Counted from the first letter of the stretch, positions 13,036 to 45,864 are shown. The stretch: 64,000 nucleotides of DNA from Alphaproteobacteria bacterium (GCA_020049775.1 JAGVLO010000014.1:65945-129944); one strand, 5' to 3'. The notes: generated by a model not told the origin, from the sequence alone. Program-made: numbers and translations.

Positions 13036-13040
13036 GCAGA

Positions 13041-14435
13041 TTATTTTATAATTGGCAGGTTATAAGTTTGCACCTTACGCTTGCCGCTTGAAAGCTCCGG
13101 CATTTCATTTTCTTTTTCATTCGGGTTAAGGCCTTCGGGAATTTGTGTCTTCGCGGGCTTTTCAGGATCAAACCATTTTCTCCAGCCTTCATTCTCCATG
13201 CCAAACTGCTTTTCCAGTTCGCGGAAACGTAAATCAAGATTATCGCCATTATGGAAATTACGCACTTCCTTATACGCATCCGAATGGTAGTAGGCCAACT
13301 GTACGGCCACAGCCATGTGCTTATGCCAGTCAGCAAGTTTTTCTTTAGAAAAGACAGGCGTTTTTGAATCAAATTTTATAAAATCGTCTTCTGTAACACG
13401 ATCTTTATAGCGATCCCAAATACCAGTACCAGGGAACGGCATCATGAAATTAGCCGCAACCATTGCAGGCTTGTAATCGCAAAAAGCTTGGAAAAGCGCA
13501 TGATAATCCTGTAACGATTCATTCAAGCTCTTGCCATGATCATTAACAATAAAACTCAGATTAATTTTTATACCATGCTTCTTTGCAAGTTCGATGGCCG
13601 ATGCAAGATCACGGTTTTTACGGTAGCTGGTATTAATTTCTTCTAGCCCTAGATTCAAGCTATGCCAGCCGTTTTCTGCAAGAAAACGCATCTTCTCGTC
13701 TGTTAGCGTTGTTGCCGTACCAAAAGAGTATAAAACATCAAAATCACCTTTGCCATACACTTGCGCGACTTCCTTTAGTTGTGGGCGCGTCGTGAACGAT
13801 TCATCACTAACAAATACCGCCTTCACTCCGCGCTGCTTAAGATCGGCAACGTCCTCCTCTACCCTTTCAATTTCATAGGTTGTCATTTTCCTGTCAGACA
13901 ACTTAGGTGTCGCACAAAACTCACAATCAAACGGACAGCCTACACTAGAGGTAGAACGCCCCGTCATCATGCCAGGAAAGACATCTGGATATATCTGACG
14001 CATTTTCTTCATATCCACGAGTTCACGATGCATTTTTCTTGAGCCTGGCTTGCCTCGCACAACACCCTTTTGGGGGCTTTCAATGATTTCTTCGATATTT
14101 GATGTAAGACCCGTAACCACCTTGTCAGCATACTTTGCTGTCGCTGCCGGATCAGCCGATGGATGGTAACCGCCAGCAATAATCTTTTCTTTGCCGACCT
14201 TCTCAGAAAATTTCTGGAACTCCTTCCATCCACGTGTGTAAACAGAGCATAAAACTAAATCACAGTCTTTTGCCTTTTCAGGATCATTATCTTCAATAAA
14301 GATATTCACATCGCCGGGGCGCTCTGATGCAAGATAAAGTACACTTGGTTCCAGCCTTTGGCCAAGCTCATGAGTTGACTGATTTGTCAAATGCGTATCG
14401 GTAAATTTGGGAAACACACAAAGACCAATTTTCAT
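13041..14435 (-). CDS. B12-binding-domain-type radical SAM protein
   Basis: CxxxCxxC cluster motif GCPFDCEFCATPK preceded by a ~150-aa Rossmann-like N-terminal domain (IIAGGYHPS). Length is 464 aa. Confidence 0.75.
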   Translation of the reverse strand: MKIGLCVFPKFTDTHLTNQSTHELGQRLEPSVLYLASERPGDVNIFIEDNDPEKAKDCDLVLCSVYTRGWKEFQKFSEKVGKEKIIAGGYHPSADPAATAKYADKVVTGLTSNIEEIIESPQKGVVRGKPGSRKMHRELVDMKKMRQIYPDVFPGMMTGRSTSSVGCPFDCEFCATPKLSDRKMTTYEIERVEEDVADLKQRGVKAVFVSDESFTTRPQLKEVAQVYGKGDFDVLYSFGTATTLTDEKMRFLAENGWHSLNLGLEEINTSYRKNRDLASAIELAKKHGIKINLSFIVNDHGKSLNESLQDYHALFQAFCDYKPAMVAANFMMPFPGTGIWDRYKDRVTEDDFIKFDSKTPVFSKEKLADWHKHMAVAVQLAYYHSDAYKEVRNFHNGDNLDLRFRELEKQFGMENEGWRKWFDPEKPAKTQIPEGLNPNEKENEMPELSSGKRKVQTYNLPIIK

Positions 14436-14444
14436 ACAACTCTC

Positions 14445-31274: not shown

Positions 31275-31293
31275 AATTTTGGCGGCGCCAGGA
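31275..31293. repeat. Degenerate direct repeat of the tRNA-Gln 3' end (putative distal att site of the island)
   Basis: AATTTTGGC---GGCGCCAGG at 31275-31293 matches AATTTTGGCTGGGGCGCCAGG at 45784-45804 (tRNA 3' end plus 6 flanking nt). That is two exact 9-mers separated by a 3-nt deletion. It lies in the intergenic region between the sigma-like gene and the phosphoesterase-STAND gene. Confidence 0.6.
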
Positions 31294-31351
31294 TTCACAA
31301 TAAACAACTAAGCAGCTATTTTATAATGGCCAAATTAAAAGTGAACCTTAA

Positions 31352-31373
31352 CTTCACCCGCAATTTCACCCAC
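31352..31373. promoter_or_regulatory. Two copies of the TTCACCC(A/G)C motif near the left island end (putative integrase arm-type sites)
   Basis: cTTCACCCGC at 31352-31361 and tTTCACCCAC at 31364-31373. The motif and orientation are the same as in the cluster next to the integrase gene. Confidence 0.45.
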
Positions 31374-31470
31374 AAATTGTGTCGCTTGCCAGGAAGGAAC
31401 TCGTGGTTAACAATTACCTACCAGGAAAATTAGAATTCTTGGGTTGGTTCAAGCAAGTTAGAATCCCAGA

Positions 31471-34400
31471 TTATGCCACCTCTTCTGTATTTTTATTTGC
31501 TTGTTGCCGTTTGGGCGCTTGCGATAGAAGCTTAGTTTGCTGTTCGACAGTAATCCCTAGTTTTTGGCAGATTTGCTGTTTAAGGGCATAGTCCGTAGTG
31601 AAAAGATAAAAGTGCTGCCATACAATTCTACGTACGACTGCTAAAGCAAAATTGTTTTTCGCAAACTCTTTGATCAATGCTTCAATTTTTACTTTGGGAA
31701 AGTCTTTATAGTGATCAAGTTTTACCGCCATATCAATCACTTGAACGGTGGCATTATCATTGCCTTTTGCAACCTCATTAAGCGTTTGCTCAGCCTTTTC
31801 TGTTCCTACAGAATCGGAGACATGTTTAATCACACCGCATGTTACAGCTTGTAGTATATTGTAAATAAATCTGTTTATTGAGGTCTGAATTTTAGCTTCA
31901 TCAACTTTCTTACCTCGTGACTTTATGTATTCACTAAGGCCTTCGACCCATTGCGGCATCGATTTTTCGGCATTATCAAAAATATCTCCTAAGACACGCA
32001 ATCCCAGACCATAGCATTCCTCAACTAGCTGACGTTTGGGATCGCCACGCAATGAACCAGTAAAGTTTCTTAGAACCTGCCCCAAAATCTGAATAGTCTT
32101 AAATGCCGCATTATGTGCGAGCTGTGGAGTTAACTCGTCCGCACACTCTGATGCCGCGCACATGTGAGCAATACTACCTGTGTGTCTACCATTCTGCTCA
32201 TCACGAGACTCAAGTGCTTTATTTTGGTTTTCACGAGGATCGCGTGCAGCCAACATAATTTTAGGGAGATCGACATTCAGCTTATTGAAAAATTCAGAAT
32301 TTTTGGAAACATCGAATCTTGCTGTTTCAGTAAACAGATTTCTTGCTGCTGCTAACATCGCATTGAGCACTCGATCATCCTTTGAAAGGTGACAGAGAAA
32401 AATCATGATATTTGCCGATTCTTCATGATAAAGACGTCGGCTCAAATCATCAATGCGAGATTGAATTGTATCTTCATTGATATGATCTCGGAAATATCGA
32501 CCAACGAAGAAATAATACAGATACTTATAGCGGAACTTATATTCGCCATGCCTATTGTCCATTACTTCTGCTTCTACCAGTTCACCTAATAGGTCATCGA
32601 AGTCGAATGTTAGGCGGTATTCTGCCGTATATTTTTTATGCCAATCGCGCATCTCCTCTAAAGTTAATGAATGACGTTGATTGTTATACAAATAGTACGA
32701 AAATTCCGTAAGATAGTTATATTTAGCGTCAATATCAATTTTGGGATTTCTTTTGCGAGCAAGACTAGCAGTAACTAGAACTTCATATAAATACCCAAAT
32801 GAGCCTGATTGAGTGGTCAGCTTCGATGCAATCTCAAGTTGCTGCAATAATATAAGGACATAAGTCGGAAAAGAAGGAATAAAGTCGATACTGATAACTG
32901 TAGAAATCTGATCCTCTGCTCGCTTAATGGCACGCTGAGTTTCAATCTCGTTATCAGTATAGTTTTTTCCTAAACGACACCATTTTTCAACAAGCCTATG
33001 CCGTAAGACATAGCCAAATTGGAGAATCGAACATTGCTTAAAGTCCAATAAATGGGATTTTTCCTCGTCTCCTGCCATTGACAGTTCTTCCAGACGCAGC
33101 TCCTCTCCACCCAAGAAGACAACATGACCGAATAAATCTTTAAGCACACCAGCGATTACGCTACGTCCGCTTCGGTTAAATGGTGTTTTATGAAAATCAT
33201 CTACAATTACAACTCTACGATCTTTATCAAGCTGCCAATATTTATCCACACGACCTGATCCGTACTGCGTCTCTACTTGTTCAGTTGCACGTTTGCGTAT
33301 TTTATCAATATCTGGTTGCTTATGAAATTGCTCTCCATTGAGCAGAACTGGCACTTTACCATTACGCTGAAGATCTTTTACAAGCGTTTTAGCCAATGAA
33401 GTCTTGCCTGCTTTTTCCTCGCCAAGAAACAGTACATAAGTATTATTCAGAATATGCGTTAAAAGATTGCTTCCGCGAACTAGTACACCTTCTGAGCCTT
33501 CCTGAGTGAGGCTTATTTCACGTACGTCAGGATAGATAAAAATATCATTGAGAGTTACGGGGTCTTTGTGAGGATGGGTGTAACCAGCACCAGCATCTTC
33601 AAGTACATTATAAAAGCTATCGGTAAAATCAAACTGCTTGCGTACTAATCGCTTATTCCGCTCGAAAGGACGCCAGAGCGCCTCTCCTTCAGGTGCATAC
33701 CCATCTCCTACCAGCTCAAAACGATGGGTTTGCTGCTCACCTTTGGCTGTATCAAAAATAACAACATTAAAGGTGCTATTATCAGCAGAATGACTATCTT
33801 GTAGTACACCACCTTCAAGATATTCGTTTTGTTCTCCTTGATCGGTACATTTCTGATAAGCTCCTGGCACATGTTCATGTCCAGTTAATATGAGATCGGT
33901 ATTATCTTCTAATATCTGCCTAAGCTGACGAGCATTTTCGGCAGAATACCAATTAAAGGGATGGTGAAGGACAGCAACAGCAAGGTCAGCCTGTCCAGCG
34001 TTTGTGATTTTATCTTTTAGTATATCTACTGGATAATAGAGATTGCCTTGCTTTTCTTCTTTTTGAGATCCCCATGCAGAATTTACAAGGTGAAACACTA
34101 CTCTTTTGCTAGCAACCGGAAGTTCCACACGGCGATATAGTTTATCGTAACTCGTTGTAAGGGCATTATTTGTAGGAATATGTTTGTTTGCAAACTCAAA
34201 ATAATGATTTTGAGCGTCAGTGCATGCATTAAAAACTGCCTCATCCAATTGCCCCGGCTTTACACTGTCGATTAAAATATTCCTAACTGAGGTGTTTTGT
34301 CCAAAGTGGCAATCATGGTTGCCCGGAATGGTTAAAACTGAAAAATTGGTAGGATTAAAAGTATCCTTAAGGACAGATTTAATATCTTGGATAAGCTCTT

Positions 34401-34590
34401 CAGCAAAAGCATATTCGCCAGGACTGCCAGAGAACGCTATATCACCTGAAATGACAAGCACTCCATGAGAAACTCCCATACAAACAGAGGCTACTGCACG
34501 TCCTATAGCAGCACCGTGCTGAAGGATTGGGTTAGCTTCGCGTGCTGCTTTAAGGTGTATATCGCTTAATTGGACGAGAGCAATTTGCAT
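31471..34590 (-). CDS. Calcineurin-like metallophosphoesterase domain fused to a STAND/NACHT-like P-loop NTPase and a ~570-aa helical C-terminal region (1039 aa)
   Basis: All five phosphoesterase motifs are present: D10-I-H12, G49-D50, G90-N-H-D93, H209-H210 and G237-H-E-H240. Walker A is G390-EEKAGKTS (nt 33397-33423) and Walker B is RRVVIVDDF (458-466). After the NTPase comes a FRYKYLYYFFVGRYF-type helical segment. The gene is AT-rich. Confidence 0.65.
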   Translation of the reverse strand: MQIALVQLSDIHLKAAREANPILQHGAAIGRAVASVCMGVSHGVLVISGDIAFSGSPGEYAFAEELIQDIKSVLKDTFNPTNFSVLTIPGNHDCHFGQNTSVRNILIDSVKPGQLDEAVFNACTDAQNHYFEFANKHIPTNNALTTSYDKLYRRVELPVASKRVVFHLVNSAWGSQKEEKQGNLYYPVDILKDKITNAGQADLAVAVLHHPFNWYSAENARQLRQILEDNTDLILTGHEHVPGAYQKCTDQGEQNEYLEGGVLQDSHSADNSTFNVVIFDTAKGEQQTHRFELVGDGYAPEGEALWRPFERNKRLVRKQFDFTDSFYNVLEDAGAGYTHPHKDPVTLNDIFIYPDVREISLTQEGSEGVLVRGSNLLTHILNNTYVLFLGEEKAGKTSLAKTLVKDLQRNGKVPVLLNGEQFHKQPDIDKIRKRATEQVETQYGSGRVDKYWQLDKDRRVVIVDDFHKTPFNRSGRSVIAGVLKDLFGHVVFLGGEELRLEELSMAGDEEKSHLLDFKQCSILQFGYVLRHRLVEKWCRLGKNYTDNEIETQRAIKRAEDQISTVISIDFIPSFPTYVLILLQQLEIASKLTTQSGSFGYLYEVLVTASLARKRNPKIDIDAKYNYLTEFSYYLYNNQRHSLTLEEMRDWHKKYTAEYRLTFDFDDLLGELVEAEVMDNRHGEYKFRYKYLYYFFVGRYFRDHINEDTIQSRIDDLSRRLYHEESANIMIFLCHLSKDDRVLNAMLAAARNLFTETARFDVSKNSEFFNKLNVDLPKIMLAARDPRENQNKALESRDEQNGRHTGSIAHMCAASECADELTPQLAHNAAFKTIQILGQVLRNFTGSLRGDPKRQLVEECYGLGLRVLGDIFDNAEKSMPQWVEGLSEYIKSRGKKVDEAKIQTSINRFIYNILQAVTCGVIKHVSDSVGTEKAEQTLNEVAKGNDNATVQVIDMAVKLDHYKDFPKVKIEALIKEFAKNNFALAVVRRIVWQHFYLFTTDYALKQQICQKLGITVEQQTKLLSQAPKRQQANKNTEEVA

Positions 34591-34786
34591 AAAGAGTCCT
34601 TATTTGTTACCAATTCCTTAATAGCTAGTTTAATACCTTAAAGTAGATTTTCATAAGAGTTTTTGTGAACTTTACCATCTTAATATATTACCTAATTTTT
34701 ACCATTTCACTTTGTTACAGTATGGTTCTGGGTGTCACCTATCAAATAGGGAATACCCTGAAAAGCGCCCCCTACAGCAAACAATT

Positions 34787-36424
34787 CTAGCTCTTTGAAG
34801 CCTTGCTGACTGGTAACAACGGTAACTCAAGCTCCTTCAAGAACTCATTGTGCTTATTGAAAGCCACGCCGATTTTTTGTTCTAGGCCTTGTAGCGTTTC
34901 ATGCACTACTTCCAGCTTAATTTCCTCTTCTGCTTCTGCTGTGCTGATATAGCGTGAGATGTTTAGATTATAGCCGTGTTTTTCGCATATTTCCTCCAGA
35001 GAAACCTTCTTTGAATAACGATCCTCCTCCGTTCGGAATTGATAGGTTTTTACAATCTTTTCGATATGTTCTGGCAGTAGCTGATTTTGCCGTTTGCCTT
35101 TAGCAAAATTGTCTTCACCGCTGGCATTGATGAACAGCACATCATCTGGCTTTTTGCATTTCTTCAGCACAAGAATGCACACGGGAATGCCGGTGGAGTA
35201 GAAGAGATTGGCTGGCAGGCCGATCACGGTATCGATATGACCGTCATCCAGCAGTTTTTGGCGGATACGCTCTTCCGCTCCACCACGGAACAGCACGCCG
35301 TGCGGCAGGATGATAGCCATCGTGCCTTCATGCTTCAGGTAATGAAAGCCATGCAGCAGGAAGGCAAAATCTGCCGCCGATTTAGGCGCTAGGCCATGGC
35401 TCTTAAAGCGAGAATCATCCGCCATTGCCTCAGTGGTTTCCCAGCGATAGCTAAACGGAGGATTGGCTACAATCGCATCAAAAGCTGGCTTCTTCGCTGG
35501 GTTCTGTTCGCGGAGTATGTCCCAGTCATTTTCTAACGTATCACCGTGAAAAATCTCGAATTCAGTATCCTTTACTCCATGCAGCAGCATGTTCATGCGT
35601 GCGAGGTTGTAGGTGGTGATATTTTTTTCCTGCCCATAGATTTTGCCAACAGTACCGCCTTCTTTTTTTATCTGATTACGCACATTGAGCAGCAACGATC
35701 CCGAACCACAGGCAAAATCTAAAACGCTATCCAGATGTTTTTTCTTGCCGAGCTTGGGGTCTTGGCTATCCAGCGTCACGATGGCGGAAAGAATGGTGGA
35801 GATTTGCTGTGGGGTGTAGAACTCGCCAGCCTTTTTGCCCGAACCTGCCGCAAACTGGCCAATCAGATATTCATAGGCATCGCCCAACGCGTCTTGATCC
35901 GTTGAGAATCTGGATAGCCCTTCTGCAATTTTGGTGATAACCGTGCAGAGCTTCGTATTGCGATCCTTGTAGGTCTTTCCCAGTTTATCAGATGCTAGGT
36001 TAATCTCCGAGAACAGCCCCTGAAAAGTGCTGTCGAACGATTCATTTTCAATGAACTTGAAACCCTCCTGAAGGGTATGCAGCAACTCGTCATCCTGCCT
36101 GCGTGCCATTTCTGCGATGTTGCCCCAGAGGTGATCGGGCTTAATGACATAATGCACCCGACGGCGCAGGAGGTCTTCAAACGCCTTTACGTCGTCAGGG
36201 TTTTCTTCATACCAGCGTTGCAGCGGGGTGGTATGACCATTAGGTGCAGGATATTCTTTTCCCAACTCTTTTTTTGCAGCTGCTTCGTAATTGTCCGAAA
36301 GATAGCGCAGGAAAAGGAATGAAAGCATATAATCGCGGAAATCATCCGCGTTCATTGCGCCGCGCAGCTGATCCGCGATTGCCCAGAGGATTTTCCCCAA
36401 TTCCTTTTGTTGTTCTTCGGTCAT
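34787..36424 (-). CDS. hsdM: Type I restriction-modification system, DNA methyltransferase subunit M
   Basis: N-terminal HsdM domain LWAIADQLRG...DFRDYMLSFLFLRYLS, AdoMet motif DFACGSGSLLL, and catalytic IVANPPFS. Its ATG overlaps the stop of the upstream gene (ATGA). Confidence 0.93.
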   Translation of the reverse strand: MTEEQQKELGKILWAIADQLRGAMNADDFRDYMLSFLFLRYLSDNYEAAAKKELGKEYPAPNGHTTPLQRWYEENPDDVKAFEDLLRRRVHYVIKPDHLWGNIAEMARRQDDELLHTLQEGFKFIENESFDSTFQGLFSEINLASDKLGKTYKDRNTKLCTVITKIAEGLSRFSTDQDALGDAYEYLIGQFAAGSGKKAGEFYTPQQISTILSAIVTLDSQDPKLGKKKHLDSVLDFACGSGSLLLNVRNQIKKEGGTVGKIYGQEKNITTYNLARMNMLLHGVKDTEFEIFHGDTLENDWDILREQNPAKKPAFDAIVANPPFSYRWETTEAMADDSRFKSHGLAPKSAADFAFLLHGFHYLKHEGTMAIILPHGVLFRGGAEERIRQKLLDDGHIDTVIGLPANLFYSTGIPVCILVLKKCKKPDDVLFINASGEDNFAKGKRQNQLLPEHIEKIVKTYQFRTEEDRYSKKVSLEEICEKHGYNLNISRYISTAEAEEEIKLEVVHETLQGLEQKIGVAFNKHNEFLKELELPLLPVSKASKS

Positions 36425-37518
36425 GCCGCCACCTCCGCGTGTAATTTGAAATTGTATTTTGCTTTGAGCTTATCAAACACCTCTTTGAAAAGTTCCGTGT
36501 TATCAGGATTCATTACTTCCGTCTGATAATGATAAACCTTTTGGTGAGAGAGAGTATTGATGATCCGAGTCACTTGTTCAGTGTCTTCGATCCCTATCTG
36601 GTTAAGCACATACCCAAATTGTCCAACACCTAAGAACGAAGCGATATTCTCAAGAATCTGGCGCAACAGTGCAAAATGGAACGTGTAGAGCTGTTCGGCC
36701 TGCGCTTTTTCCAGTGTTTGCAGTAAGTGCAAATGATATAGGAAAACATCGTTCTTTGGACTTTCAAGCGTCAAATCACCCGACTTCTGGCTCAGGATAA
36801 AGAGCTTGGTTAGCTTCCTGTATCTTTCACTTTTGTCGCCTTTGGTCAGCCAATCCGCAAGGATTGAGAAAAAGCCAATGTGATGGGTGGTGATGATAAA
36901 TTTTCTGTTTTTGTAGTGCGTTTCAATCAAATCATAAAGGGTTGAGGCAGTGATGAAGATATTGTGATCATCTAAGCTAGAAACAGGATCATCAATAAAG
37001 AAGTGGCTGGATTGCTGATCTGTCCAGCCCTCAACCTCGAACAAAGCCAAAAAGAAGCACCAAACGAAAATGCGTTCTTCACCTCTGGAGATTTTTATTC
37101 TTTTTCTGTCGGGGTCATCTGGCAAAAAGAAGAATATCGACTCAATCCCATCCACTAAATTGGCATGAAGCACAAATTCAAAATCATACTGTGGCTTGAA
37201 TGGCTTTAGCTTCTCACGGACTTTATCTTCATCTATAAAGCTATGATATTGATTTAAGCTACTCCCATTCACAATCAGCTGGGTTTCTGGTTCATTCTCC
37301 CACACAAAAAGGTCTTCGCTGTAAGCATTATAATAAACGCCCGTGTGTTGCTCTTCCTGCTTGGTTGCATCTTTGTACGCCACTGACAGGCGAGTCTTTC
37401 CAGTGGCGTTAAACGCATAAATCAAGACGATTTTGACGTCTTCCTCTCTCGCCGCCCCTCTGTCGTGAATAGTATTTTTTAAGTCTTTTAATTGGCCTGC
37501 GATTTCTGAAAGTTCCAT
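36421..37518 (-). CDS. PrrC/Rlo-like ABC-type ATPase embedded in the hsd operon (putative anticodon nuclease)
   Basis: Motifs: Walker A AFNATGKTR; ABC-signature-like ISRGEERIF; Walker B FFIDDPVSSLDDHN; and ITTHH. The C-terminal LLRQILEN...NTLSHQ gives an R-x3-E...H arrangement like the Arg/Glu/His anticodon-nuclease triad of E. coli PrrC as I recall it. It sits between hsdS and hsdM, as prrC sits inside the EcoprrI locus. Confidence 0.55.
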   Translation of the reverse strand: MELSEIAGQLKDLKNTIHDRGAAREEDVKIVLIYAFNATGKTRLSVAYKDATKQEEQHTGVYYNAYSEDLFVWENEPETQLIVNGSSLNQYHSFIDEDKVREKLKPFKPQYDFEFVLHANLVDGIESIFFFLPDDPDRKRIKISRGEERIFVWCFFLALFEVEGWTDQQSSHFFIDDPVSSLDDHNIFITASTLYDLIETHYKNRKFIITTHHIGFFSILADWLTKGDKSERYRKLTKLFILSQKSGDLTLESPKNDVFLYHLHLLQTLEKAQAEQLYTFHFALLRQILENIASFLGVGQFGYVLNQIGIEDTEQVTRIINTLSHQKVYHYQTEVMNPDNTELFKEVFDKLKAKYNFKLHAEVAA

Positions 37519-37521
37519 TTC

Positions 37522-38730
37522 TTAGCCCTCACTTTCATTTGAGGGGACAGGGAAGAGTTGCTGCATCAGCCCTATTTTATGACCTCGCAGCGCATCGAGT
37601 TTTTGGCTTTGGGCGGCGATGAGATCGTCGATAGAGGATAATAGGTCAGCAATATATTGCTGCTCTTTTTTGCTCTTTGGATAAGGTATCGGGATGCTCT
37701 TGAGTTTTCCCAGAGTAAGCTTAGGAGGTGCTTTACCCGTCGTAAATGGAGTAATATCAAGTCTCACCAGATAATTTTCCAATAGTGTGTCGTTGATTTC
37801 TATTGGTTTTAATACGTGGGCATGGTTGTTAACCCAGTATTTGCCATCCGCTATAAATGCTGTTTTCTCATATGCTCCCCACTTTGCGCCATCTTCTCCA
37901 ACTAATACCAATCGTTCATTGAAAATATAGTCATCAATGTAGTCAACAATGCCGCTTGCGCCGTAATAGGGATATTCGCCTTTTTCTCTGTACTCGCTTG
38001 AGATCGGTTTTCTACGATTATTAAGAACATCGCAAACTTTCTCTAAAGGTTTAAAATTCCACTCTGGGGCGTCCTTAAACTCAGGAAAGCGGCGTTTGGG
38101 CAGGGTTTCACCTTCGGCGGGGAAGAGTTCCTGCATCAGCCCTTTTTTATGACGCTGAAGGGCATCCAGCTTTTGATCTTCCACCTCGATCAACTCGTCC
38201 AGCGATGTCAAGCAATTGCTTATGCGTCGTTGCTCAGGTAGAGAAGGTAATAGCGTTTTCCAAGAACGAAGGACATTCAAATACAGCCTTGTTCGAGTTC
38301 CGCCTTTCTTTTGTTCAAAAGCAAGCTGCTTAAAGTCGTCACCATAGTTCAATTTATATAAAAGGAATTCTGCGCTTAGATTTACTGTTTTGAAAACAGG
38401 ATATTCCTTACTAACAGCTATAGAAGAACCAGTCTTATTAATGTTAAATTTGAATGATCCATCATCACTCATATGGCGATAAACAAAGTAATTTTCTGGC
38501 ACCACGCCATATTCGCCCTCATTAGCTAATTCTCTGTTGTCAAAGTAATCTTTCTGAAGTTTAAGTCCTGTTCTGGTTGAGCTATAAATCGGAAGTTCAG
38601 TGCTGGCGGACACTCTTTCAGCATATTCTTCTAAGTAGGGGGCTAATGCTTTATATTCCCAGTCACCGCTAAACTCAGGAAATCGTAGCTTAGGCCGAAC
38701 AACTTTCTCGCTCTTGGTTTTATTGCTCAT
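37522..38730 (-). CDS. hsdS: Type I restriction-modification system, specificity subunit S
   Basis: Two target-recognition domains are each preceded by (L)R/KFPEF and followed by the conserved helices LPEQRRISNCLTSLDELIEVEDQKLDALQRHKKGLMQELF and KKEQQYIADLLSSIDDLIAAQSQKLDALRGHKIGLMQQLF. Confidence 0.92.
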   Translation of the reverse strand: MSNKTKSEKVVRPKLRFPEFSGDWEYKALAPYLEEYAERVSASTELPIYSSTRTGLKLQKDYFDNRELANEGEYGVVPENYFVYRHMSDDGSFKFNINKTGSSIAVSKEYPVFKTVNLSAEFLLYKLNYGDDFKQLAFEQKKGGTRTRLYLNVLRSWKTLLPSLPEQRRISNCLTSLDELIEVEDQKLDALQRHKKGLMQELFPAEGETLPKRRFPEFKDAPEWNFKPLEKVCDVLNNRRKPISSEYREKGEYPYYGASGIVDYIDDYIFNERLVLVGEDGAKWGAYEKTAFIADGKYWVNNHAHVLKPIEINDTLLENYLVRLDITPFTTGKAPPKLTLGKLKSIPIPYPKSKKEQQYIADLLSSIDDLIAAQSQKLDALRGHKIGLMQQLFPVPSNESEG

Positions 38731-41716
38731 AGGCGTTTAACCCCGATATGGTGCGCCCGTGGGAAAGTTTGTGCAGCAGTGGGGCCAAATCCTCTACCAA
38801 TGCCAGCTCTTTCTGTGTGCGGTCTTTCCAGCCCAGTTCCAGCGGTGCCAGTAATTCACTCAGTTGTTCGCCATCAAAAATCATGCGACGGAGAATACCA
38901 TCCACAAATTCTTGTAGGCTGGCAGCTTCCAGCCCGTGCTTATCTGCAATCACGGCCAGCGCCTTGGCATTTTTTCCCGCTTTGAAGTTGGCGTAACCAT
39001 CGCGGATTGCTTTCTCGCTCAGGCCTTCGCCTTCCTTTAGGGAATAGATGTACTCCTTAATGTCCTCATGCTCATCCATAAACTTAGCATCAGAGGCAAT
39101 GAGGCCAATCAACTGATCGCGGCTCATTTTCAGTTTACCCTTGGTGCCTTGGGAGTATTTGGCAATCAGTGCCATGATGTAGTCATAATCAATCACGGCG
39201 GAGGCAAAGAGCACGAACTCAAAATCCAACTGCTGCACTTCGGGCGAGGTATTCTCGCCGCCCTTATCCTGCTGGGCTTTAAGGCGCTGCGCGGTTTCGA
39301 TATACACGCCCTTGAAGCCTTGTAGCTGCTCTTTAGGGATCACCTGCTCGATGGTTTGTTTCTGCTCGTCGTTCAGGTCGGTGTATTGATCCAGCTGGGT
39401 TTTGAGGCGCTGCACATCCTTAAACAGGTTGATGAACTGGCTGCGTGCGGCGTCGCCTTTCAGGTTTGGCACATCCTCTGGCTTGTTTTCCAGCCCTTGT
39501 GATTTCATGAACTCGTCGAGGTTCTTGATGGCTCCATCAAGCTTCGCAATCACCACCGGCGCTTTATCCACCAGCCAAATTTCCTTGGCTTGTTCAGAGC
39601 TTGCGCCAGAAAACAGCGCAATCGCAGTATTCACGGCATCTTCTTGCTGCCGGAACTCAAGGATATTGCCATAGGGCTTGGTATCGTTCAGCACACGATT
39701 TGTGCGCGAGAATGCCTGAATCAGCCCGTGGAATTTGAGGTTTTTGTCCACATACAGGGTGTTCAGGTATTTGGAATCAAAGCCCGTAAGAAGCATATCC
39801 ACCACGATCACAATGTCGATCTTCTGCGCGTGTGGGAAATCTTGGTTAGGGTATTGCTGGTCTTTGATACGTTTCTGCACATCCTGATAATACAGATCAA
39901 ACTCAACAATGCTGTGGTTGGTTTTGTAGCGTTTGTTGTAATCCGCAATGATGGCTTTTAGCGCGGTTTCTTTTTCTTTGGGGTTTTTCTTGTTGTCTTC
40001 TCTTTCCTGCGGCAGGTCTTCCTGCATTTGCTTGGCGTCATTACTGCTTTCGGCGGGGGGAGAGAACACGCAGGCGATGTTCAGCGGCTGAAAGCCTTCA
40101 GTTGTTGGCTGCCTTTTATTCTGAATGTCCTTGAAAAGATTGTAATATTCAATCGCATCATTGATCGACGCGGTAGCCAGAACAGCATTAAACCTGCGCC
40201 CGTTGGTTGCGGCATCGTGTTTTTCAAGAATGGCCTCAACAACTGCTTTCTTTAACGGAGGATCTCCGGGTTTGGCTTTCTGCACGCCTTCTGGCTTGTA
40301 GTAATCGATATGGAAGCGCAGCACATTGCGATCTTCAATCGCGTGAGTAATGGTGTATTGGTGCAGCTGCTTTTGGAAGATGTCTTCTGTAGTTTTATAG
40401 GAAGCCTGCTCACCTTCAACCTGCTGATAGGTAGCGTTTTGTTCAAAGATTGGTGTTCCCGTGAAACCAAACAGCTGGGCATTGGGGAAGAATTCTTTGA
40501 TAGCTTCGTGACTGTCACCGAACTGCGAACGATGGCATTCATCAAAAATAATCGCCATACGCTTGTTGCTCAGCGGTTCAAGGCGCTCTGTATATGTTTC
40601 CTTGCCCTGCTTTTGTTTTGCTTTGTTTCGTTTGCTGTTTTCGTTCAGTGCCAGCCCCAGCTTCTGGATGGTGGTGACAATTACTTTATCGGCATAATCA
40701 TCCGATAGCAGGCGCTGCACCAGTGTTTCGGTGTTGGTGTTTTGCTCAACGCAGCCCTCTTGAAAGCGATTGAACTCTTCACGGGTTTGCCGGTCGAGGT
40801 CTTTTCGATCTACCACGAAGAGGCATTTTTCAAGGTCTGGATTGTCCTTTAGTAGTGTAGATGCCTTGAAGGATGTCAGGGTTTTGCCGCTGCCGGTAGT
40901 GTGCCAGATGTAACCATTGCCACAGCGTTGGTGGATGCACTCCACAATCGCTTTCACCGCATAGATCTGGTAAGGGCGCATCATAAGCAGTTTCTGCTCG
41001 CTGGCAACCAGAACCATATATTGGCTGATCATTTGCCCAAGCGTGCATTTGGTGAGGAACTTCTCGGCGAAATTATCAAGCTGGGTGATTTTCTTGTTGT
41101 CCTCGCTGGCGAACTGGTAAAGCGGCAGGAAGCGTTCATCCGCATCAAAGCTGAAGTGGCGGCTGTTGTTGTTGGCGAAATACCAAGTATCTGTGCGGTT
41201 GCTGACGATGAATATCTGTAGGAAACACATCAGCGTTTTGCCGTAACCATTGCCGGGATCGTTTTTGTAATCGACGATCTGCTGCATGGCGCGGCGCGGG
41301 GTGATCTGTAGGGTTTTCAATTCCACCTGCACGACCGGCACGCCGTTAATCAGCAGAATTACATCATAGCGATGGTGGCTGTTGTCTGTGTTAATCCGCA
41401 GCTGATTGATCACTTCAAAGGTGTTTTTGCACCAGTCCTTGATATTCACCAGCGTGTAATTCAGCGGTGTTCCGTCATCGCGTTCAAAGCTGTTGCGCTC
41501 TCTTAGCGTGCGTGCGGCAGCATACACATCTGGCGTGACGATGATTTCCAGTAAACGTGAGAACTCGTTATCTGTGAGCTTAACCTTGTTAAGTTCCTCG
41601 AACTTTTCGCGGAAATTTCTTTCCAGCGCGGCGCGATCACGAATATCATCGCGATAAAGGTATTTAAGATCACTCAGTTTGCTGATCAGATCTTGTTCAA
41701 TTTGTTGTTCTTTCAT
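38720..41716 (-). CDS. hsdR: Type I restriction endonuclease subunit R (helicase-nuclease)
   Basis: An N-terminal HSDR_N-like region is followed by SF2 helicase motifs HTTGSGKTLTS and IFDECHRSQ, then TGTPIF. Total 998 aa. It overlaps the hsdS start by 11 nt. Confidence 0.93.
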   Translation of the reverse strand: MKEQQIEQDLISKLSDLKYLYRDDIRDRAALERNFREKFEELNKVKLTDNEFSRLLEIIVTPDVYAAARTLRERNSFERDDGTPLNYTLVNIKDWCKNTFEVINQLRINTDNSHHRYDVILLINGVPVVQVELKTLQITPRRAMQQIVDYKNDPGNGYGKTLMCFLQIFIVSNRTDTWYFANNNSRHFSFDADERFLPLYQFASEDNKKITQLDNFAEKFLTKCTLGQMISQYMVLVASEQKLLMMRPYQIYAVKAIVECIHQRCGNGYIWHTTGSGKTLTSFKASTLLKDNPDLEKCLFVVDRKDLDRQTREEFNRFQEGCVEQNTNTETLVQRLLSDDYADKVIVTTIQKLGLALNENSKRNKAKQKQGKETYTERLEPLSNKRMAIIFDECHRSQFGDSHEAIKEFFPNAQLFGFTGTPIFEQNATYQQVEGEQASYKTTEDIFQKQLHQYTITHAIEDRNVLRFHIDYYKPEGVQKAKPGDPPLKKAVVEAILEKHDAATNGRRFNAVLATASINDAIEYYNLFKDIQNKRQPTTEGFQPLNIACVFSPPAESSNDAKQMQEDLPQEREDNKKNPKEKETALKAIIADYNKRYKTNHSIVEFDLYYQDVQKRIKDQQYPNQDFPHAQKIDIVIVVDMLLTGFDSKYLNTLYVDKNLKFHGLIQAFSRTNRVLNDTKPYGNILEFRQQEDAVNTAIALFSGASSEQAKEIWLVDKAPVVIAKLDGAIKNLDEFMKSQGLENKPEDVPNLKGDAARSQFINLFKDVQRLKTQLDQYTDLNDEQKQTIEQVIPKEQLQGFKGVYIETAQRLKAQQDKGGENTSPEVQQLDFEFVLFASAVIDYDYIMALIAKYSQGTKGKLKMSRDQLIGLIASDAKFMDEHEDIKEYIYSLKEGEGLSEKAIRDGYANFKAGKNAKALAVIADKHGLEAASLQEFVDGILRRMIFDGEQLSELLAPLELGWKDRTQKELALVEDLAPLLHKLSHGRTISGLNAYEQ

Positions 41717-41765
41717 TATTAATCCGCCTGCGCCATATCCTGCCCTATAACTGATTACCTGTTAT

Positions 41766-42848
41766 TTATAGACTATCAGCGGCAAGTTTCAGCAATTTCT
41801 TTAGTTGTGCTGTATCAGCATTTTCTTGCTTCTTCAAACCCTTAATGATTTCACATTGCCGGTACGGTTCGATCTGTCCATAACTGCCCCAAGTGGTCAG
41901 CACACTTTCATGCCCTAGATTTTGGCTCCATGCCTTAAAATCTTCGGGGGTTTTGCAGTAATCCTTTGCCACATGCCCTAGCGTATGCCGAAAAGAATGG
42001 GGGTTGAAATAAGGCAGCCCAGCCGCTTCAAATGCCTGTCGGAATATTTTGCACATCGGAGCGGCAGTACTCCAGTGTTCTTTGCTGAGTCCATCCGGCT
42101 GAAAGCCGTTGATGACATCTGGAACTATGCGGGTTTTGGGAAACAATGGGTCATCCGGGCTGAACAATTTTTCCTTCACCAGATATTCCGCCCATTCCAA
42201 TACAACCGCCTTGAAGTCATCCCCTATAGGGAAAAACCCAGTAATAATGGTTTTGCTACGCTTTGTATGTACCTCATCCGGGTACTGTGTTACCATCCAC
42301 TTGTGAGTGTCCAGATGTTTCAGGCTCATGGATATAATGGCGCTATCCCTTGCGCCAGAGACGATAGTAAATGCTATCAACGCCCGGTTACGTTTCTGAA
42401 TATCGGTATCGGCAGGCATGGCCTGTACCGTTGCCCGGATTTGTTCTAAGGAAGGAAATGGTCGTAATTTCATGCTATGCGCTATTTTTACATCTCTTGC
42501 TGTAAGGTTCAGGTAGCCAATATCGAGCGGGTCTATTTTTGATTTATAACCATCTTGCATGGCTAGCCATTTAAAAAATTCCTGAATGCTCCTGACGGTG
42601 GAAAGCATGGTTGCCTTGGTAAGTGGAGCATCGCCACGGGCAGTTTTTAGTCCCATCAGGTGCTTCTTGAACCCTACCGCCTGTTCCCTGTTGAAAGTGG
42701 AAAAATCCTTGAAGTTATTATATTCTTCAAAACGCCGGATGGCTTTGCAGATGCCGTCAATGGCACTTTCACTCTTGCCGTCCACCTCAATCCGATAGCG
42801 ATAGTATTCTTCCTTAATTCGTTCATTTCTAGCAGTGTAATTTTTCAT
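41766..42848 (-). CDS. Tyrosine recombinase (phage-integrase family), second recombinase of the island
   Basis: Catalytic-domain landmarks: IVSGARDSAI (Arg), HSFRHTLGH (H-x-x-R), and GHESVLTTWGSYG (His...Tyr). Confidence 0.85.
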   Translation of the reverse strand: MKNYTARNERIKEEYYRYRIEVDGKSESAIDGICKAIRRFEEYNNFKDFSTFNREQAVGFKKHLMGLKTARGDAPLTKATMLSTVRSIQEFFKWLAMQDGYKSKIDPLDIGYLNLTARDVKIAHSMKLRPFPSLEQIRATVQAMPADTDIQKRNRALIAFTIVSGARDSAIISMSLKHLDTHKWMVTQYPDEVHTKRSKTIITGFFPIGDDFKAVVLEWAEYLVKEKLFSPDDPLFPKTRIVPDVINGFQPDGLSKEHWSTAAPMCKIFRQAFEAAGLPYFNPHSFRHTLGHVAKDYCKTPEDFKAWSQNLGHESVLTTWGSYGQIEPYRQCEIIKGLKKQENADTAQLKKLLKLAADSL

Positions 42849-42863
42849 GGTTTACCGGCTCCT

Positions 42864-43367
42864 CTATAACTCACAGTTAACGGGGGAATGGCCACACGCT
42901 ACTATGTGTTCCCCCTGTACCGTTTGGACATTGAAGATTTTTTGGTATTCAGGGATTTTTTTGATGGAGCCGCCCCGGTTCATGGCGGTGTTACACACGG
43001 CGCATAATCCGGTGATATTAAGCTGCTTTGGATTGCGGATTATCAGGTCAACGGTGTTTTCCCATGCTGGTTGTGGCTTCCGGCATTTACAGCAATAAAG
43101 TTCATTGGGTTTGCACGTATGTTTCCGGGTGGATTGCTTGGCGTTCAAATGATCAATGAGGGTGCTCCCATGTACCCTCTGAGGTTTTTGCTCGTCAATA
43201 TAGGGCAGTCCCCACCTATGCACGGCGTTGGGATGTAGCTTGAACAAGTCAGCCACTCCCTGCACTGTATAGCTACGATTGCGTCTAATCAGGCGTGTGT
43301 TATAGGTGCGCTTCTTTTTCGCCACTGACCACCCCACACTATTGGGCGGGTATGTTGGTTTTTTCAA
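42864..43367 (-). CDS. Hypothetical protein with a putative HTH and a Cys-rich (zinc-ribbon-like) C-terminus
   Basis: 167 aa with the cysteine pairs CCKCRKP...CAVCNTA. It overlaps the alpA-like ORF by 29 nt. Confidence 0.45.
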   Translation of the reverse strand: MKKPTYPPNSVGWSVAKKKRTYNTRLIRRNRSYTVQGVADLFKLHPNAVHRWGLPYIDEQKPQRVHGSTLIDHLNAKQSTRKHTCKPNELYCCKCRKPQPAWENTVDLIIRNPKQLNITGLCAVCNTAMNRGGSIKKIPEYQKIFNVQTVQGEHIVACGHSPVNCEL

Positions 43368-43545
43368 TCAGGGTGCGGATGTCTTCGGCACGCCATGCGG
43401 TGATGCGCTCACCCAGCTTTACGGCTTTTGGATAACGGCCAGTTTTAACACCAGCCCACCATGTAGATTTGCTCACGGGAATAACGGCAAGCACGGCAGG
43501 GAGCCGCATAAAACCAGTGGAAGGAATGGAAGAATTGTTTTGCAT
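43339..43545 (-). CDS. alpA: AlpA-family phage/island transcriptional regulator (excisionase-like HTH)
   Basis: FMRLPAVLAVIPVSKSTWWAGVKTGRYPKAVKLGERITAWRAEDIRTLI matches the AlpA/MerR-type pattern (RLPEV...S.ST.Y......FPKP.KLG.R...W...E...W). Confidence 0.85.
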   Translation of the reverse strand: MQNNSSIPSTGFMRLPAVLAVIPVSKSTWWAGVKTGRYPKAVKLGERITAWRAEDIRTLIEKTNIPAQ

Positions 43546-43751
43546 AGTGCTACTCCGTTTGTTGAAGAACAGTCGGAGTTATGCACGTCCAGCAGCAATA
43601 GAATAGATGGGCGGGTTCAAAAAAACTTGCCCACGCAAAATGCCGATAATCCCCTAGGGTTCATTAAGAACAGGTGGGGTGATAAAACGTAAGAAATTAA
43701 ATTCAAAATTAGATAACCAATATATTACAGTACTATAAATGGGTGGGTAGG

Positions 43752-44378
43752 TTATCCATCATTGCCAGGTGTTTTTGCCACCCCGCCGCTAGGTTTCCAA
43801 TTAGCTACCTTTGCTATCTCCTCAATTCCTTGTTCATTTGGATTTCCATCTTCCTTGGTCAAGCCATATTCACCTGCGTGTTCGCGAAGCCATTTTTCTA
43901 TCGCCTGTTTGGGCGTCCTTCCTTTTAGTGATGCAGGGTTTTCGCTGACTGCTTTCCATGCGCCCATAGCTGCTGCCAATTTGGCCGCATAATAAGGGTT
44001 GTCTTTGGAAAGGTAGTCAGGACTTTCATCTTCTCCAGGCGGGAAGAAAAAACCTTTCGTAAAACCGCGCTTTTTCAGAAACTGTTTTACAGAAAAAACG
44101 GATAGTATTGTGTTATTAATGTCTACACTATTGGGTATGTCTCCACAGGGAACGCCATTAAAATCATGGTCTATGAGCGGCACTAGTTTTGCCTGAATGT
44201 CGCCTCGTAGTATGGCATGTATAAGAGCCGTTTTCGCTGGTTCATAACCGATTGGGCGGCGAGCCATATCCCAATTTTCTATATTGTCATTTTGGGAAGG
44301 GTCTTCATCCACAATAAGAAGGGCTGCCTGTTTTACAGTGAGCTCATCACACAATCGCCAATAATCCATGCTTTCCAT
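43752..44378 (-). CDS. Hypothetical island protein (208 aa)
   Basis: ORF between the integrase and alpA on the same strand. No motif recognised. Confidence 0.5.
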   Translation of the reverse strand: MESMDYWRLCDELTVKQAALLIVDEDPSQNDNIENWDMARRPIGYEPAKTALIHAILRGDIQAKLVPLIDHDFNGVPCGDIPNSVDINNTILSVFSVKQFLKKRGFTKGFFFPPGEDESPDYLSKDNPYYAAKLAAAMGAWKAVSENPASLKGRTPKQAIEKWLREHAGEYGLTKEDGNPNEQGIEEIAKVANWKPSGGVAKTPGNDG

Positions 44379-44406
44379 AGTTCCCCCCGTGATAATGGGG
44401 TGCAGC

Positions 44407-45663
44407 CTATATCTTGCAGGATTTCCTTACAATATCCTTTTGCCGTCTGGCTCCTGCATCTAGATAATCTGCCCACCATTGCATCATTTTTTGGCGTTCG
44501 GGTAGGTACTCGGCATGGTTATAGGCTCCCCTCACTTTGTTGCCCTGCACATGAGCAAGTTGGCGTTCTATAGCATCACCTTTAAATAAGCCACTTTCGT
44601 TAAGTATGGTAGATGCGGTATGCCGGAAACCGTGCCCAGTCGTACGGTTATGATAGCCCATGCGATAAAGTGCATAAAGCACTGCATTTTCGCTCATGTG
44701 TTTGATTGGTTTATGGGGGTTGGGGAATACATATTTCCACTGTCCATTGAGTAACTTGAGCTCTTTGAGTGCAGCAACGGCTTGTTTTGAGAGCGGCACA
44801 ATATGCCCACGGCGCATTTTCATACGCTCGGCTGGGATACGCCACTCGGCTTTATCCAAATCTATTTCATCCCAAGTAGCCCCGCGTAGTTCTGTAGTGC
44901 GTACAAAGGTAAACATTAGTAGCTTTACGGCCAGCTTGGTTTGTAAATTACCGTCATAAGCTTCTAATTTTTCCAAAAATTCCGGCAATTCAATTTCTTT
45001 AAGATGGGCATAATTCTTTTTGACATGTGTCTTGAGTGCCCCTTTCAGGTCAGTAGCAGGATTCCGTTCAACTCGACCAGTGGCAATGCCATACATAAAA
45101 ATTTGGCTGCAATATTGCATTGCACGGTTGGCGAGTTCTAGCGCCCCGCGTTTCTCAATGATGCGTATTACGGACAACAGTTCGGGAGCGGTAATGTCTT
45201 TAATGGGGCGGCTGCCCAGCTTGGGGAAAAGGTCGTTTTCAAGCCGTTTATTCAGAAAACCTGTATAGCGTGGCGTCCAGGCAGCACTTTTCGCAGCAAT
45301 CCATTCACGTGCTATTATTTCAAAGTTGTTTTCGGCTGAGACCAGTGCCTGCCGTTTCACGGCCTTCCGTGTCTCGGAAGGGTCTTGCCCATCAGATACG
45401 AGTTTACGGGCATCTATAAGTTTGAGCCGCGCTTCTGCGAGACTGACTTCAGGGTATACGCCCAAGGAGAGTGATTTTTCTTTCCCAAGATAGCGGTATC
45501 TATATGCCCAATACTTACTGCCATTGGGGTAAACCAGTAAGGCAAGACCGTTGCCTCCACTTAGTTTTTTGACGCTTTTACCAGGCTTTGCGCTTTTGAC
45601 CGCTATATCTGTGAGTATTTTCATAATGTGGGTGAAAGAGTTTATGATTTTGGTTTCACCCAC
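44407..45663 (-). CDS. int: P4-type (DUF4102-containing) tyrosine integrase adjacent to tRNA-Gln
   Basis: LTDIAVKSAKPGKSVKKLSGGNGLALLVYPNGSKYWAYRYRYLGKEKSLSLGVYPEVSLAEAR is the classic N-terminal arm-binding domain. The C-terminus has TTGHGFRHTASTILNE and LAHVQGNKVRGAYNHAEY. The real start is probably MKILTD at 45624. Confidence 0.93.
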   Translation of the reverse strand: MGETKIINSFTHIMKILTDIAVKSAKPGKSVKKLSGGNGLALLVYPNGSKYWAYRYRYLGKEKSLSLGVYPEVSLAEARLKLIDARKLVSDGQDPSETRKAVKRQALVSAENNFEIIAREWIAAKSAAWTPRYTGFLNKRLENDLFPKLGSRPIKDITAPELLSVIRIIEKRGALELANRAMQYCSQIFMYGIATGRVERNPATDLKGALKTHVKKNYAHLKEIELPEFLEKLEAYDGNLQTKLAVKLLMFTFVRTTELRGATWDEIDLDKAEWRIPAERMKMRRGHIVPLSKQAVAALKELKLLNGQWKYVFPNPHKPIKHMSENAVLYALYRMGYHNRTTGHGFRHTASTILNESGLFKGDAIERQLAHVQGNKVRGAYNHAEYLPERQKMMQWWADYLDAGARRQKDIVRKSCKI

Positions 45664-45730
45664 ACTTTAACCCACATTCACCCACAGATGTCAACAATTC
45701 ACATCGTAGCTGGCTGGACAATAAACCCAC
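45628..45730. promoter_or_regulatory. Cluster of five (T/A)(T/A)(C/A)ACCCAC motifs between the int start and the tRNA (putative arm-type integrase/Xis binding sites or int operator)
   Basis: Copies: tttCACCCAC 45654-45663, tttAACCCAC 45666-45675, attCACCCAC 45676-45685, ataAACCCAC 45721-45730, and an inverted copy GTGGGTGaaa 45628-45637. The inverted copy forms a 10-bp perfect inverted repeat with the 45654-45663 copy. Confidence 0.45.
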
Positions 45731-45789
45731 TAAATTGGCTGTTTTTATGGGTTAAATCGGACTATATCGTCCATTGCCGGATTAAATTT

Positions 45790-45864
45790 TGGCTGGGGCG
45801 CCAGGGATCGAACCTGGGAATGGCGGTACCAAAAACCGCTGCCTTACCGCTTGGCTACGCCCCA
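45790..45864 (-). tRNA. tRNA-Gln (anticodon UUG), CCA encoded
   Basis: The reverse complement reads UGGGGCG-UA-GCC-AAGCGGUAA-GGC-A-GCGGU-UUUUGGU-ACCGC-CAUUC-CCAGG-UUCGAUC-CCUGG-CGCCCCA-G-CCA. It folds as a cloverleaf, has anticodon loop UU-UUG-GU, and is close to E. coli tRNA-Gln as I remember it. Confidence 0.93.

Follow-up and report, generated by a model that had tools for sequence, protein, structure and literature searches.

The sole tRNA gene in a 64,000-nucleotide (nt) stretch of DNA from an Alphaproteobacteria bacterium (GCA_020049775.1, JAGVLO010000014.1:65945-129944; hereafter the window, meaning the whole stretch that was analysed) is a tRNA-Gln(ttg) on the minus strand at 45790-45864, recognised by ARAGORN and by Rfam (tRNA, 59.6 bits). 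Adjoining it on the same strand, with its start at 45624 against a tRNA 3′ end at 45790, is the gene of a P4-type tyrosine integrase, and far to the left lies an imperfect copy of the tRNA 3′ end. Ten main open reading frames (ORFs), all on the minus strand, occupy the interval between the two copies; they encode the integrase, small DNA-binding proteins, a second recombinase and a set of predicted anti-phage proteins (Table 1). An earlier note, made from the sequence alone, had read this region as a defence island integrated by way of the tRNA 3′ end, and that reading is supported by arm repeats near both ends, by the layout of the attachment (att) sites and by an empty site in a relative. 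We put the probability at about 0.9 that a site-specific integrative island of ~14.5 kb, spanning 31284-45796, sits in the 3′ end of the tRNA-Gln(UUG) gene. The trinucleotide CCA is missing from the far copy of the tRNA end, and how this loss should be understood is weighed separately below.

The direct repeat and the ends of the island

Read on the minus strand, the tRNA-Gln 3′ end runs ...GGTTCGATCCCTGGCGCCCCAGCCA and continues into AAATTTAATCC; on the plus strand, 45790-45805 reads TGGCTGGGGCGCCAGG and constitutes the tRNA-proximal att core. The repeat consists of the tRNA 3′ end and 5 nt of trailer. Its proximal copy is AATTTTGGC-TGG-GGCGCCAGG, and its distal copy, at 31275-31292, is AATTTTGGCGGCGCCAGG, or TTGTGAATCCTGGCGCC-GCCAAAATTCTCTCC on the minus strand, such that two exact 9-mers in the same orientation are separated by a 3-nt gap and 18 of 21 positions agree. 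The earlier note had reported a far-end repeat of precisely this form, and its existence is confirmed; the coordinates given there (45784-45804 and 31275-31293) have to be corrected to 45785-45805 and 31275-31292. No same-strand stretch of the window aligns locally with the tRNA 3′ region better than the distal copy, which scores only 13 against 11-12 for the next places. No ungapped copy of the tRNA end with up to 3 mismatches occurs elsewhere in the window, no other long direct repeat was found to bracket the region within 20-47 kb, and Rfam, promoter and terminator scans added nothing beyond the tRNA.

More informative are the sequences that flank the repeat on its inner side. Exact matches to TTCACCCRCA number five in the 64 kb, at 31353, 31365, 45627 (minus strand), 45655 and 45677, and all of them lie within ~165 bp of the two proposed ends. 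When one mismatch is allowed, 18 matches are found where 8.8 are expected, a count that none of 100 shuffles reaches. On the tRNA side the repeats fall at 45627-45636 on the minus strand and at 45655-45664, 45667-45676 (one mismatch) and 45677-45686 on the plus strand. Moreover, the 270-bp ends have 14 8-mers in common, against a background mean of 1.5 and maximum of 10. These clustered repeats are candidate arm-type sites for the Arm-DNA-bind_3 domain of the integrase. A further common 9-mer, ACAATAAAC, is present at 31297-31305, beside the distal core, and at 45718-45726, in the proximal arm, and could be another protein-binding site.

The distal end is organised in the same manner as the att sites of closely related integrases. 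On the minus strand it reads TTTGTGGGTGAAATTGCGGGTGAAG, 55 nt, then TTATTGTGAATCCTGGCGCC, which is the first half of an attP-like layout (attP being the attachment site of the element itself). Positions 31293-31300, ATTCACAA (reverse complement TTGTGAAT), form the island-specific end, and 31284-31292 (reverse complement CCTGGCGCC) the shared core. The far-end layout, namely two GYGGGTGAA repeats, ~55 nt and TTGTGAAT(C/G)CTGGCRCC, is conserved in seven loci, among which GGGTGAA, TG.GGGT.A and TGAAT.CTGGC.CC are invariant (alignment A3); its two-repeat distal arm matches loci L083-L085, L168, L094 and L167. In the window the same elements end in TTGTGAATCCTGGCGCC, as they do in the att sites of integrases 80-86% identical. 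Base composition changes over the region as well: GC content is 0.39-0.42 over 31-35 kb, 0.46-0.49 in the left flank and 0.50-0.53 in the right flank. Low GC (0.41-0.46) is also seen outside the island, at 13001-15000 and 21001-25000, with values of 0.50-0.60 elsewhere.

An empty site in relatives of the host

The host lineage is poorly sampled and has almost no sequenced relatives. Its MurJ, for example, finds a best match of only 56% identity among 185,579 species representatives, the matches coming from uncultured Rickettsiales and Alphaproteobacteria metagenome-assembled genomes, and in the twelve loci checked (the ten closest together with L013 and L075) no tRNA lies in reach of the MurJ match and no empty site was found. 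CutA-tRNA-Gln synteny is kept in the host of L166, where CutA is 42% identical.

The left flank was more productive. The multi-helix-turn-helix (multi-HTH) protein of 1246 amino acids (aa) encoded immediately beyond the distal repeat matches, in a collection of 5.8 billion proteins, only itself and three homologues, two of which gave genomic context; Iso_dh follows in both and CutA precedes in one, and the gene is a lineage-restricted, syntenic host gene. In P0122 (60% identity, on a 337-kb contig of JGI sample 3300059473) the order is MurJ (517 aa), a 239-aa protein, CutA1 (108 aa), a 334-bp gap, the multi-HTH protein (1191 aa), a 48-aa ORF, Iso_dh and SBP_bac_3, which is the order of the window minus the island. 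The gap is close to the sum of the corresponding parts of the window: a CutA-tRNA spacer of 73 bp, the tRNA of 75 bp and a tRNA-to-multi-HTH spacer of ~195 bp. The second relative (L169, encoding P0123, 56% identity) supplies the junction itself. Its contig, whose first bases fall within the tRNA, opens with TCCTAGGTTCGATCCCTAGCGCCCCAGCCA, continues as AAATTCTCTGCATAAACAAACAAAATCATTAAAAATCAAATGGAAAGAAT and reaches the start of the multi-HTH gene 194 bp beyond the tRNA. There, the tRNA 3′ end ...CGCCCCAGCCA is directly continued by AAATTCTCTGCATAAACAAAC, which aligns with the window from 31279 downward, AAATTCTCTCCAGAAACGAAT, and the distal junction of the window continues GCCA AAATTCTCTCCAGAAACGAATAAAATCATTATAAATCAACTGGAAAGAAT, collinear with this relative (alignment A1).

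It follows from this collinearity that 31275-31283 (reverse complement GCCAAAATT) represents the tRNA end and trailer that stood at the site before the insertion moved them, and that this displaced copy lacks the CCA present in the window's own tRNA and in that of the relative. The empty tRNA-Gln site anticipated by the earlier note thus exists, and the join predicted there, 31274 to about 45790, is borne out as 31279 to 45790 once the repeated AAATT is allowed for. The syntenic 1246-aa gene likewise upholds a boundary that leaves out the genes at 25.9-31.1 kb.

Next to that gene, a 470-aa gene (25901-27313, minus strand) separates the multi-HTH gene from Iso_dh. Neither relative has this gene, a 48-aa ORF or nothing being in its place. 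It has only one homologue (33% identity) among the 5.8 billion proteins and no family match, and looks like a separate single-gene insertion. A second, older island over 25.9-31.1 kb was considered and rejected on account of the syntenic 1246-aa gene, and the idea stays open only for the 470-aa orphan.

Sister islands and related conjugative elements

Integrases 79-89% identical to that of the window, with the same arm motifs, are encoded directly after a tRNA-Gln(ttg) in loci L081, L082, L094, L095, L166 and L167, of which L094 and L095 are placed with the small islands by the look of the tRNA-integrase junction. The small-island group proper (L081, L082, L166 and L167) has integrases of 405-407 aa, with GTGGGTGAA/TTCACCCAC motifs between tRNA and integrase. 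In L082 and L167 the order is integrase, one variable ORF, AlpA, a 160-170-aa HTH_17-like protein and a 362-aa recombinase; the gene calls of L081 and L166 miss one or two small genes. The cargo of these sisters is an RHS toxin (L081/L082) or NACHT and KAP NTPases (L166/L167), and the L166 and L167 islands are complete in ~10.1 kb, with both ends present and no transfer genes.

A second group resembles integrative and conjugative elements (ICEs). Its integrases (L083/L163 and L084/L164/L165) are 395 aa long and 85-86% identical to that of the window, with a TrwC relaxase on one side (and a coupling protein in L163) and ParB and ArdC on the opposite side in L164/L165. The ICE-type contigs carry attP-like sequences that consist of two GYGGGTGAA repeats, ~55 nt, TTGTGAATCCTGGCGCCCCAGCCA, ~130 nt, more repeats and the integrase start codon. 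Contiguous attP-like junctions, with both arms and a full core, occur in L083 (9735-10000), L084 (7493-7758), L085, L086-L092 and L168, one of them in the middle of a 637-kb contig. Such junctions are flanked by relaxase genes to one side and by the integrase to the other, and they may represent elements in tandem, circular forms or joins made in assembly.

All four Gln(UUG)-type attP-like cores (L083, L084, L085 and L168) have the full 16-nt CCTGGCGCCCCAGCCA, and the distal copy of the window is the odd one out. The cores of L086 (9817) and L088 (5) are of a tRNA-Gln(CUG) type, CCTAGTCCCCCAGCCA, matching the tRNA-Gln(CUG) in L094 at 4132, and other 16-nt cores in L087, L089, L090 (4467), L091 (7739) and L092 (2720) track different tRNA acceptor strands. 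The GAAT flank and arm repeats stay constant while the core varies, a pattern that suggests target switching within the integrase family. Two other sources of comparison were set aside. Viral-contig matches to TGTGAATSCTGGCRCC (n = 47) were chance matches, none with arm repeats upstream. The integrase-AlpA-HTH-second recombinase backbone recurs on a 787-kb replicon of Ruegeria conchae (NZ_CP081104.1; L217, 8664-9034), where only a tRNA-like 3′ fragment (...GGTTCGAGTCCGTGTGGGGGCACCA) lies upstream, the arm repeat is a different one (GGGGGTAC/GTACCCCC) and a second integrase gene stands just upstream; this locus was of no help for comparing att cores.

The far ends of the sister islands are of particular relevance to the 3-nt gap. 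In L094 (contig Ga0206847_10030, 20752-20840), L166 (JAMIFV010000013.1, 11216-11310) and L167 (SRR18360465_69789, 11044-11140), the match to the tRNA ends with CTGGCRCC and gives way to unrelated sequence, GCGTATTATGG in L094 and ATGTAGGACATAGG in L166/L167; this is the same position as the gap in the window. More distant islands keep their repeats to the CCA end, over 18 nt in L150 (tRNA-Leu) and 11 nt in L093 (tRNA-Glu). All three sister islands with a readable far end (that of the window, L094 and L166/L167) show their break at one place, and this small sample suggests a shared breakpoint. One could speculate that small alphaproteobacterial tRNA-Gln defence islands share integrase and att sites with ICEs, may ride on them and may be repeatedly fixed by damage at one spot, a proposal that we regard as quite doubtful. 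If true, the breakpoint would either mark where the integrase cleaves and where defence cargo becomes locked in the chromosome through aberrant events, or reflect the capture of further DNA there.

Insertion, the missing CCA and alternative explanations

We propose that the P4-type integrase placed the island in the tRNA-Gln(UUG) gene of the host, at its 3′ end. The Arm-DNA-bind_3 domain of the enzyme would contact the GTGGGTGAA-type repeats of either end, and strand exchange would take place inside the 16-nt block CCTGGCGCCCCAGCCA, as the family comparison implies. Left of that block, TTGTGAAT in the island stands in the position of the tRNA's T-loop, and every attP of the family contains an acceptor-strand copy through CCA that changes with the target. 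The comparison with the relatives shows that DNA was inserted at the tRNA 3′ end and that the island restores this end and keeps the tRNA intact, the earlier 3′ end and trailer now lying 14.5 kb away, at 31275-31283. What was inserted is a conserved backbone (integrase, a variable ORF, AlpA, a ~165-aa HTH/zinc-ribbon protein and a ~360-aa second recombinase) to which exchangeable cargo is attached. The 3-nt gap, right of centre in the CCTGGCGCCCCAGCCA block, has a short inverted element on either side, TGGC and GCCA. Given the arm sites, the att layout and the empty site, the missing CCA is therefore read as having been lost by the former tRNA end, now displaced. That this was a lesion suffered after integration, and one that impairs or prevents precise excision, is an interpretation of timing and effect to which we give slightly better than even odds.

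Several observations weigh against this account. The repeat by itself is barely significant, as 5% of 60 block-shuffled windows reach a score of 13, and its meaning therefore rests on comparative evidence. In that evidence, the empty site of P0122 is known from the gene map alone, L169 begins within the tRNA, so CutA is not on the same molecule, and neither relative is close (56-60% identity in the multi-HTH protein). The site might in principle be empty by ancestry or through excision; either way the boundaries it defines are the same. Finally, a crossover to the left of AAATT would leave unexplained why the two ends agree over these 5 nt past CCA.

That last point is accounted for if the gap was already present in the attP of the island (CCTGGCGCC-GCCAAAATT) and the exchange took place to the right of it, within GCCAAAATT. 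The proximal copy would then be the native tRNA and the distal copy island DNA, and excision could work. The attP-like sequences of the family, which have unrelated bases after CCA (ACCTTT, GCCACT, TCTCTT, GTGCCC), also fit such a scheme. Against it stand the full-length cores in all four contiguous Gln(UUG)-type junctions, and the collinearity of GCCAAAATTCTCTCC with the tRNA end and trailer of the relative, GCCAAAATTCTCTGC, which fits a host origin from GCCA onward and still leaves room for a crossover inside those 9 nt. We hold a gapped attP to be unlikely, if a credible contender.

Much less likely is a derivation from an ICE whose transfer genes were deleted, in place of membership in the small-island family. 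Integrases 85-86% identical, with the same arms and core, do reside in elements with a TrwC relaxase, a coupling protein, ParB and ArdC (L083/L163 and L084/L164/L165). However, the backbone of the window matches that of L081, L082, L166 and L167 and not the ICE-type loci, L166 and L167 are complete without transfer genes, and integrase length separates the small islands from the ICE type. Relaxase, coupling protein and type IV secretion system families found no Pfam match among the ten main island ORFs.

That the repeat is a chance match, with the boundary elsewhere and perhaps including the 25.9-31.1 kb genes, is scarcely credible, for all that the shuffled windows and the absence of the 470-aa gene from relatives speak for it: the 1246-aa gene is syntenic beside CutA and tRNA in island-free relatives, homology to the trailer of the relative begins exactly at the repeat, the distal arm and the TTGTGAAT end are found directly on its inner side, and no arm-motif cluster lies further left. 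We therefore retain the tRNA-integrated island, as delimited above.

Integrase, backbone and defence cargo

Table 1. Features of the island and its borders in the window (strand "." where none applies; aa, amino acids).
Feature	Position	Strand	Evidence or remark
Multi-HTH protein, 1246 aa	27342..31082	-	Several weak XRE-type HTH matches; homologues 56-60% identical
Distal junction	31275..31300	.	Alignments A1, A3
Candidate integrase-distal arm, two tandem TTCACCCRCA	31353..31374	.	Starts 12 nt apart; motif search, alignment A3
DS-8-type metallophosphatase and STAND/NACHT-like NTPase, 1039 aa	31471..34590	-	NF053861 1026.5 bits (cut-off 790); PDC-S60 E 5.8e-105
hsdM, type I methyltransferase	34787..36424	-	Pfam N6_Mtase, HsdM_N; TIGR00497 384.7 bits (cut-off 242.75)
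PrrC-like protein within hsd cluster	36421..37518	-	PADLOC PrrC E 5.6e-102, profile 21-350/372; Pfam AAA_13, C-terminal part
hsdS, type I specificity subunit	37522..38730	-	Pfam Methylase_S, two stretches; PADLOC Specificity_I
hsdR, type I restriction subunit	38720..41716	-	Pfam HSDR_N, SWI2_SNF2, T1R_D3-like, EcoR124_C; PADLOC REase_I 1120 bits; TIGR00348
Second tyrosine recombinase, 360 aa	41766..42848	-	Pfam Phage_integrase E 4e-9
Backbone protein, 167 aa	42864..43367	-	Cys pairs; no family match itself
AlpA-family small DNA-binding protein	43339..43545	-	Pfam Phage_AlpA E 1.4e-7, above cut-off
ORFan, 208 aa	43752..44378	-	Variable slot between sister islands
P4-type tyrosine integrase, 405 aa	44407..45624	-	Pfam Arm-DNA-bind_3 E 8e-26, Phage_int_M 6.5e-34, Phage_integrase 4.6e-24
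Candidate integrase-proximal arm, TTCACCCACA/GTGGGTGAA-type repeats	45627..45686	.	Between tRNA and integrase start; motif search
Proximal repeat copy	45785..45805	.	tRNA 3′ end CCTGGCGCCCCAGCCA and AAATT on minus strand; alignment A1
tRNA-Gln(UUG), integration target	45790..45864	-	ARAGORN, Rfam, sequence

The Pfam domains and the position of the integrase agree with the earlier note, which had a P4-type integrase abutting the tRNA. Residues R242, H331, R334, H358 and Y368 are conserved, with R, HxxR, H and Y invariant among its relatives (alignment A2), and the catalytic domain looks intact. The protein matches P0001, on a 130-kb NCBI contig, at 100% identity, and has many metagenome relatives at 70-90% identity. 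The ORF that follows it found no match in Pfam, PADLOC or NCBIfam and shows no similarity to the ORF at the same position in L082. AlpA, by comparison, keeps its position in L082, L167 and the Ruegeria locus, and is a candidate excision or directionality regulator.

The two remaining backbone proteins are also found in the sisters. The 167-aa protein is 30% identical to the 160-aa protein of L082 (E 8e-20); its relatives show a weak HTH_17 domain and its Cys pairs suggest a zinc ribbon. The second recombinase is 37% identical to the 362-aa protein of L082 (E 4e-80), and the gene order around it is repeated in L081, L166, L167 and Ruegeria conchae NZ_CP081104.1; it had no match in the phage collection. 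Since the same backbone order is kept in sister islands with different cargo, the second recombinase belongs to the backbone, together with AlpA and the HTH/zinc-ribbon protein. The earlier note had listed it with the cargo, and in this respect that list does not stand, unlike its defensive genes. Our best guess, of low confidence, is that the second recombinase and its partner resolve or maintain the excised circle, or form an alternative recombination module.

The cargo, by contrast, is the exchangeable part of the island, made up of a DS-8 homologue together with a type I restriction-modification system in which PrrC is embedded. The defensive character claimed earlier for these genes is borne out by matches to the DS8_antiphage equivalog and PDC-S60, by hsdR, hsdS and hsdM, and by the PADLOC PrrC profile. 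The three hsd subunits are present together by Pfam, PADLOC and NCBIfam, and prrC lies between hsdS and hsdM, its product being a putative anticodon nuclease by family. Within hsdS, an internal direct repeat (D1; 80 nt, 75% identity, 37550-37629 and 38120-38199) is the usual duplicated conserved region between two target-recognition domains. The 1039-aa protein has Metallophos and nSTAND_NTPase4 domains in Pfam and covers 994 of 994 positions of the DS8_antiphage profile, from which a defence role is predicted. DS-8 is a single-protein anti-phage system in which, by mutation, metallophosphatase and NACHT residues are needed for protection (PMC13092281).

Comparison with known systems

The island is real and of an ordinary, well-known kind: integrase domains, adjacency to a tRNA, an imperfect far repeat and an empty site in a related genome place it among tRNA-integrated islands, and the understanding of such islands is unchanged by it. 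Its value lies in being a cleanly delimited case in which DS-8, type I restriction and PrrC arrive as a unit on a tRNA-targeting island. Moreover, searches for sister islands, and for what they carry, can start from its backbone, which comprises the GTGGGTGAA arm repeats besides integrase, AlpA, the HTH/zinc-ribbon protein and the second recombinase.

Islands that target tRNA or tmRNA genes by means of P4-family integrases include CP4-57 of E. coli (IntA and AlpA at ssrA) and tRNA-linked pathogenicity islands. With CP4-57-type islands the element shares an arm-binding integrase N-terminus, AlpA, insertion at a small RNA gene whose 3′ end is then restored by the island, a short direct repeat marking the far boundary, and variable cargo. 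It differs in its target, tRNA-Gln(UUG) of a poorly sampled alphaproteobacterium, in its second tyrosine recombinase with an HTH/zinc-ribbon partner and in a far repeat that is short of 3 nt. Its likeness to the sister ICEs (L083/L163 and L084/L164) extends to integrases 85-86% identical, GTGGGTGAA arm repeats and the core TTGTGAATCCTGGCGCCCCAGCCA, whereas its backbone is different and its ORFs lack relaxase, coupling protein and type IV secretion system matches.

P4-like satellites and other integrative elements are hotspots of defence genes. The island has in common with them a conserved mobile backbone with swappable anti-phage cargo, its sisters carrying RHS, NACHT or KAP genes. Unlike P4-like satellites, it lacks a P4 alpha-type primase and genes for capsid hijacking; no primase or Toprim match was found among the island ORFs in Pfam or NCBIfam, and a large primase is seen only downstream in L081.

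For the cargo, the closest precedent is EcoprrI-PrrC, the prr locus of E. coli CT196, in which a type I restriction system contains an embedded anticodon nuclease; cleavage of the tRNA-Lys anticodon by PrrC is released by a phage anti-restriction peptide. A PrrC-family gene among hsd genes is common to both loci. In the window the order is hsdR-hsdS-prrC-hsdM on the minus strand, Pfam matches only the C-terminal AAA_13 part, and the system is known from sequence. The 1039-aa protein, in turn, has the same two-domain make-up as the DS-8 described with DefensePredictor (PMC13092281) and matches its equivalog; host and genomic setting differ, and in this island protection against phage is a prediction.

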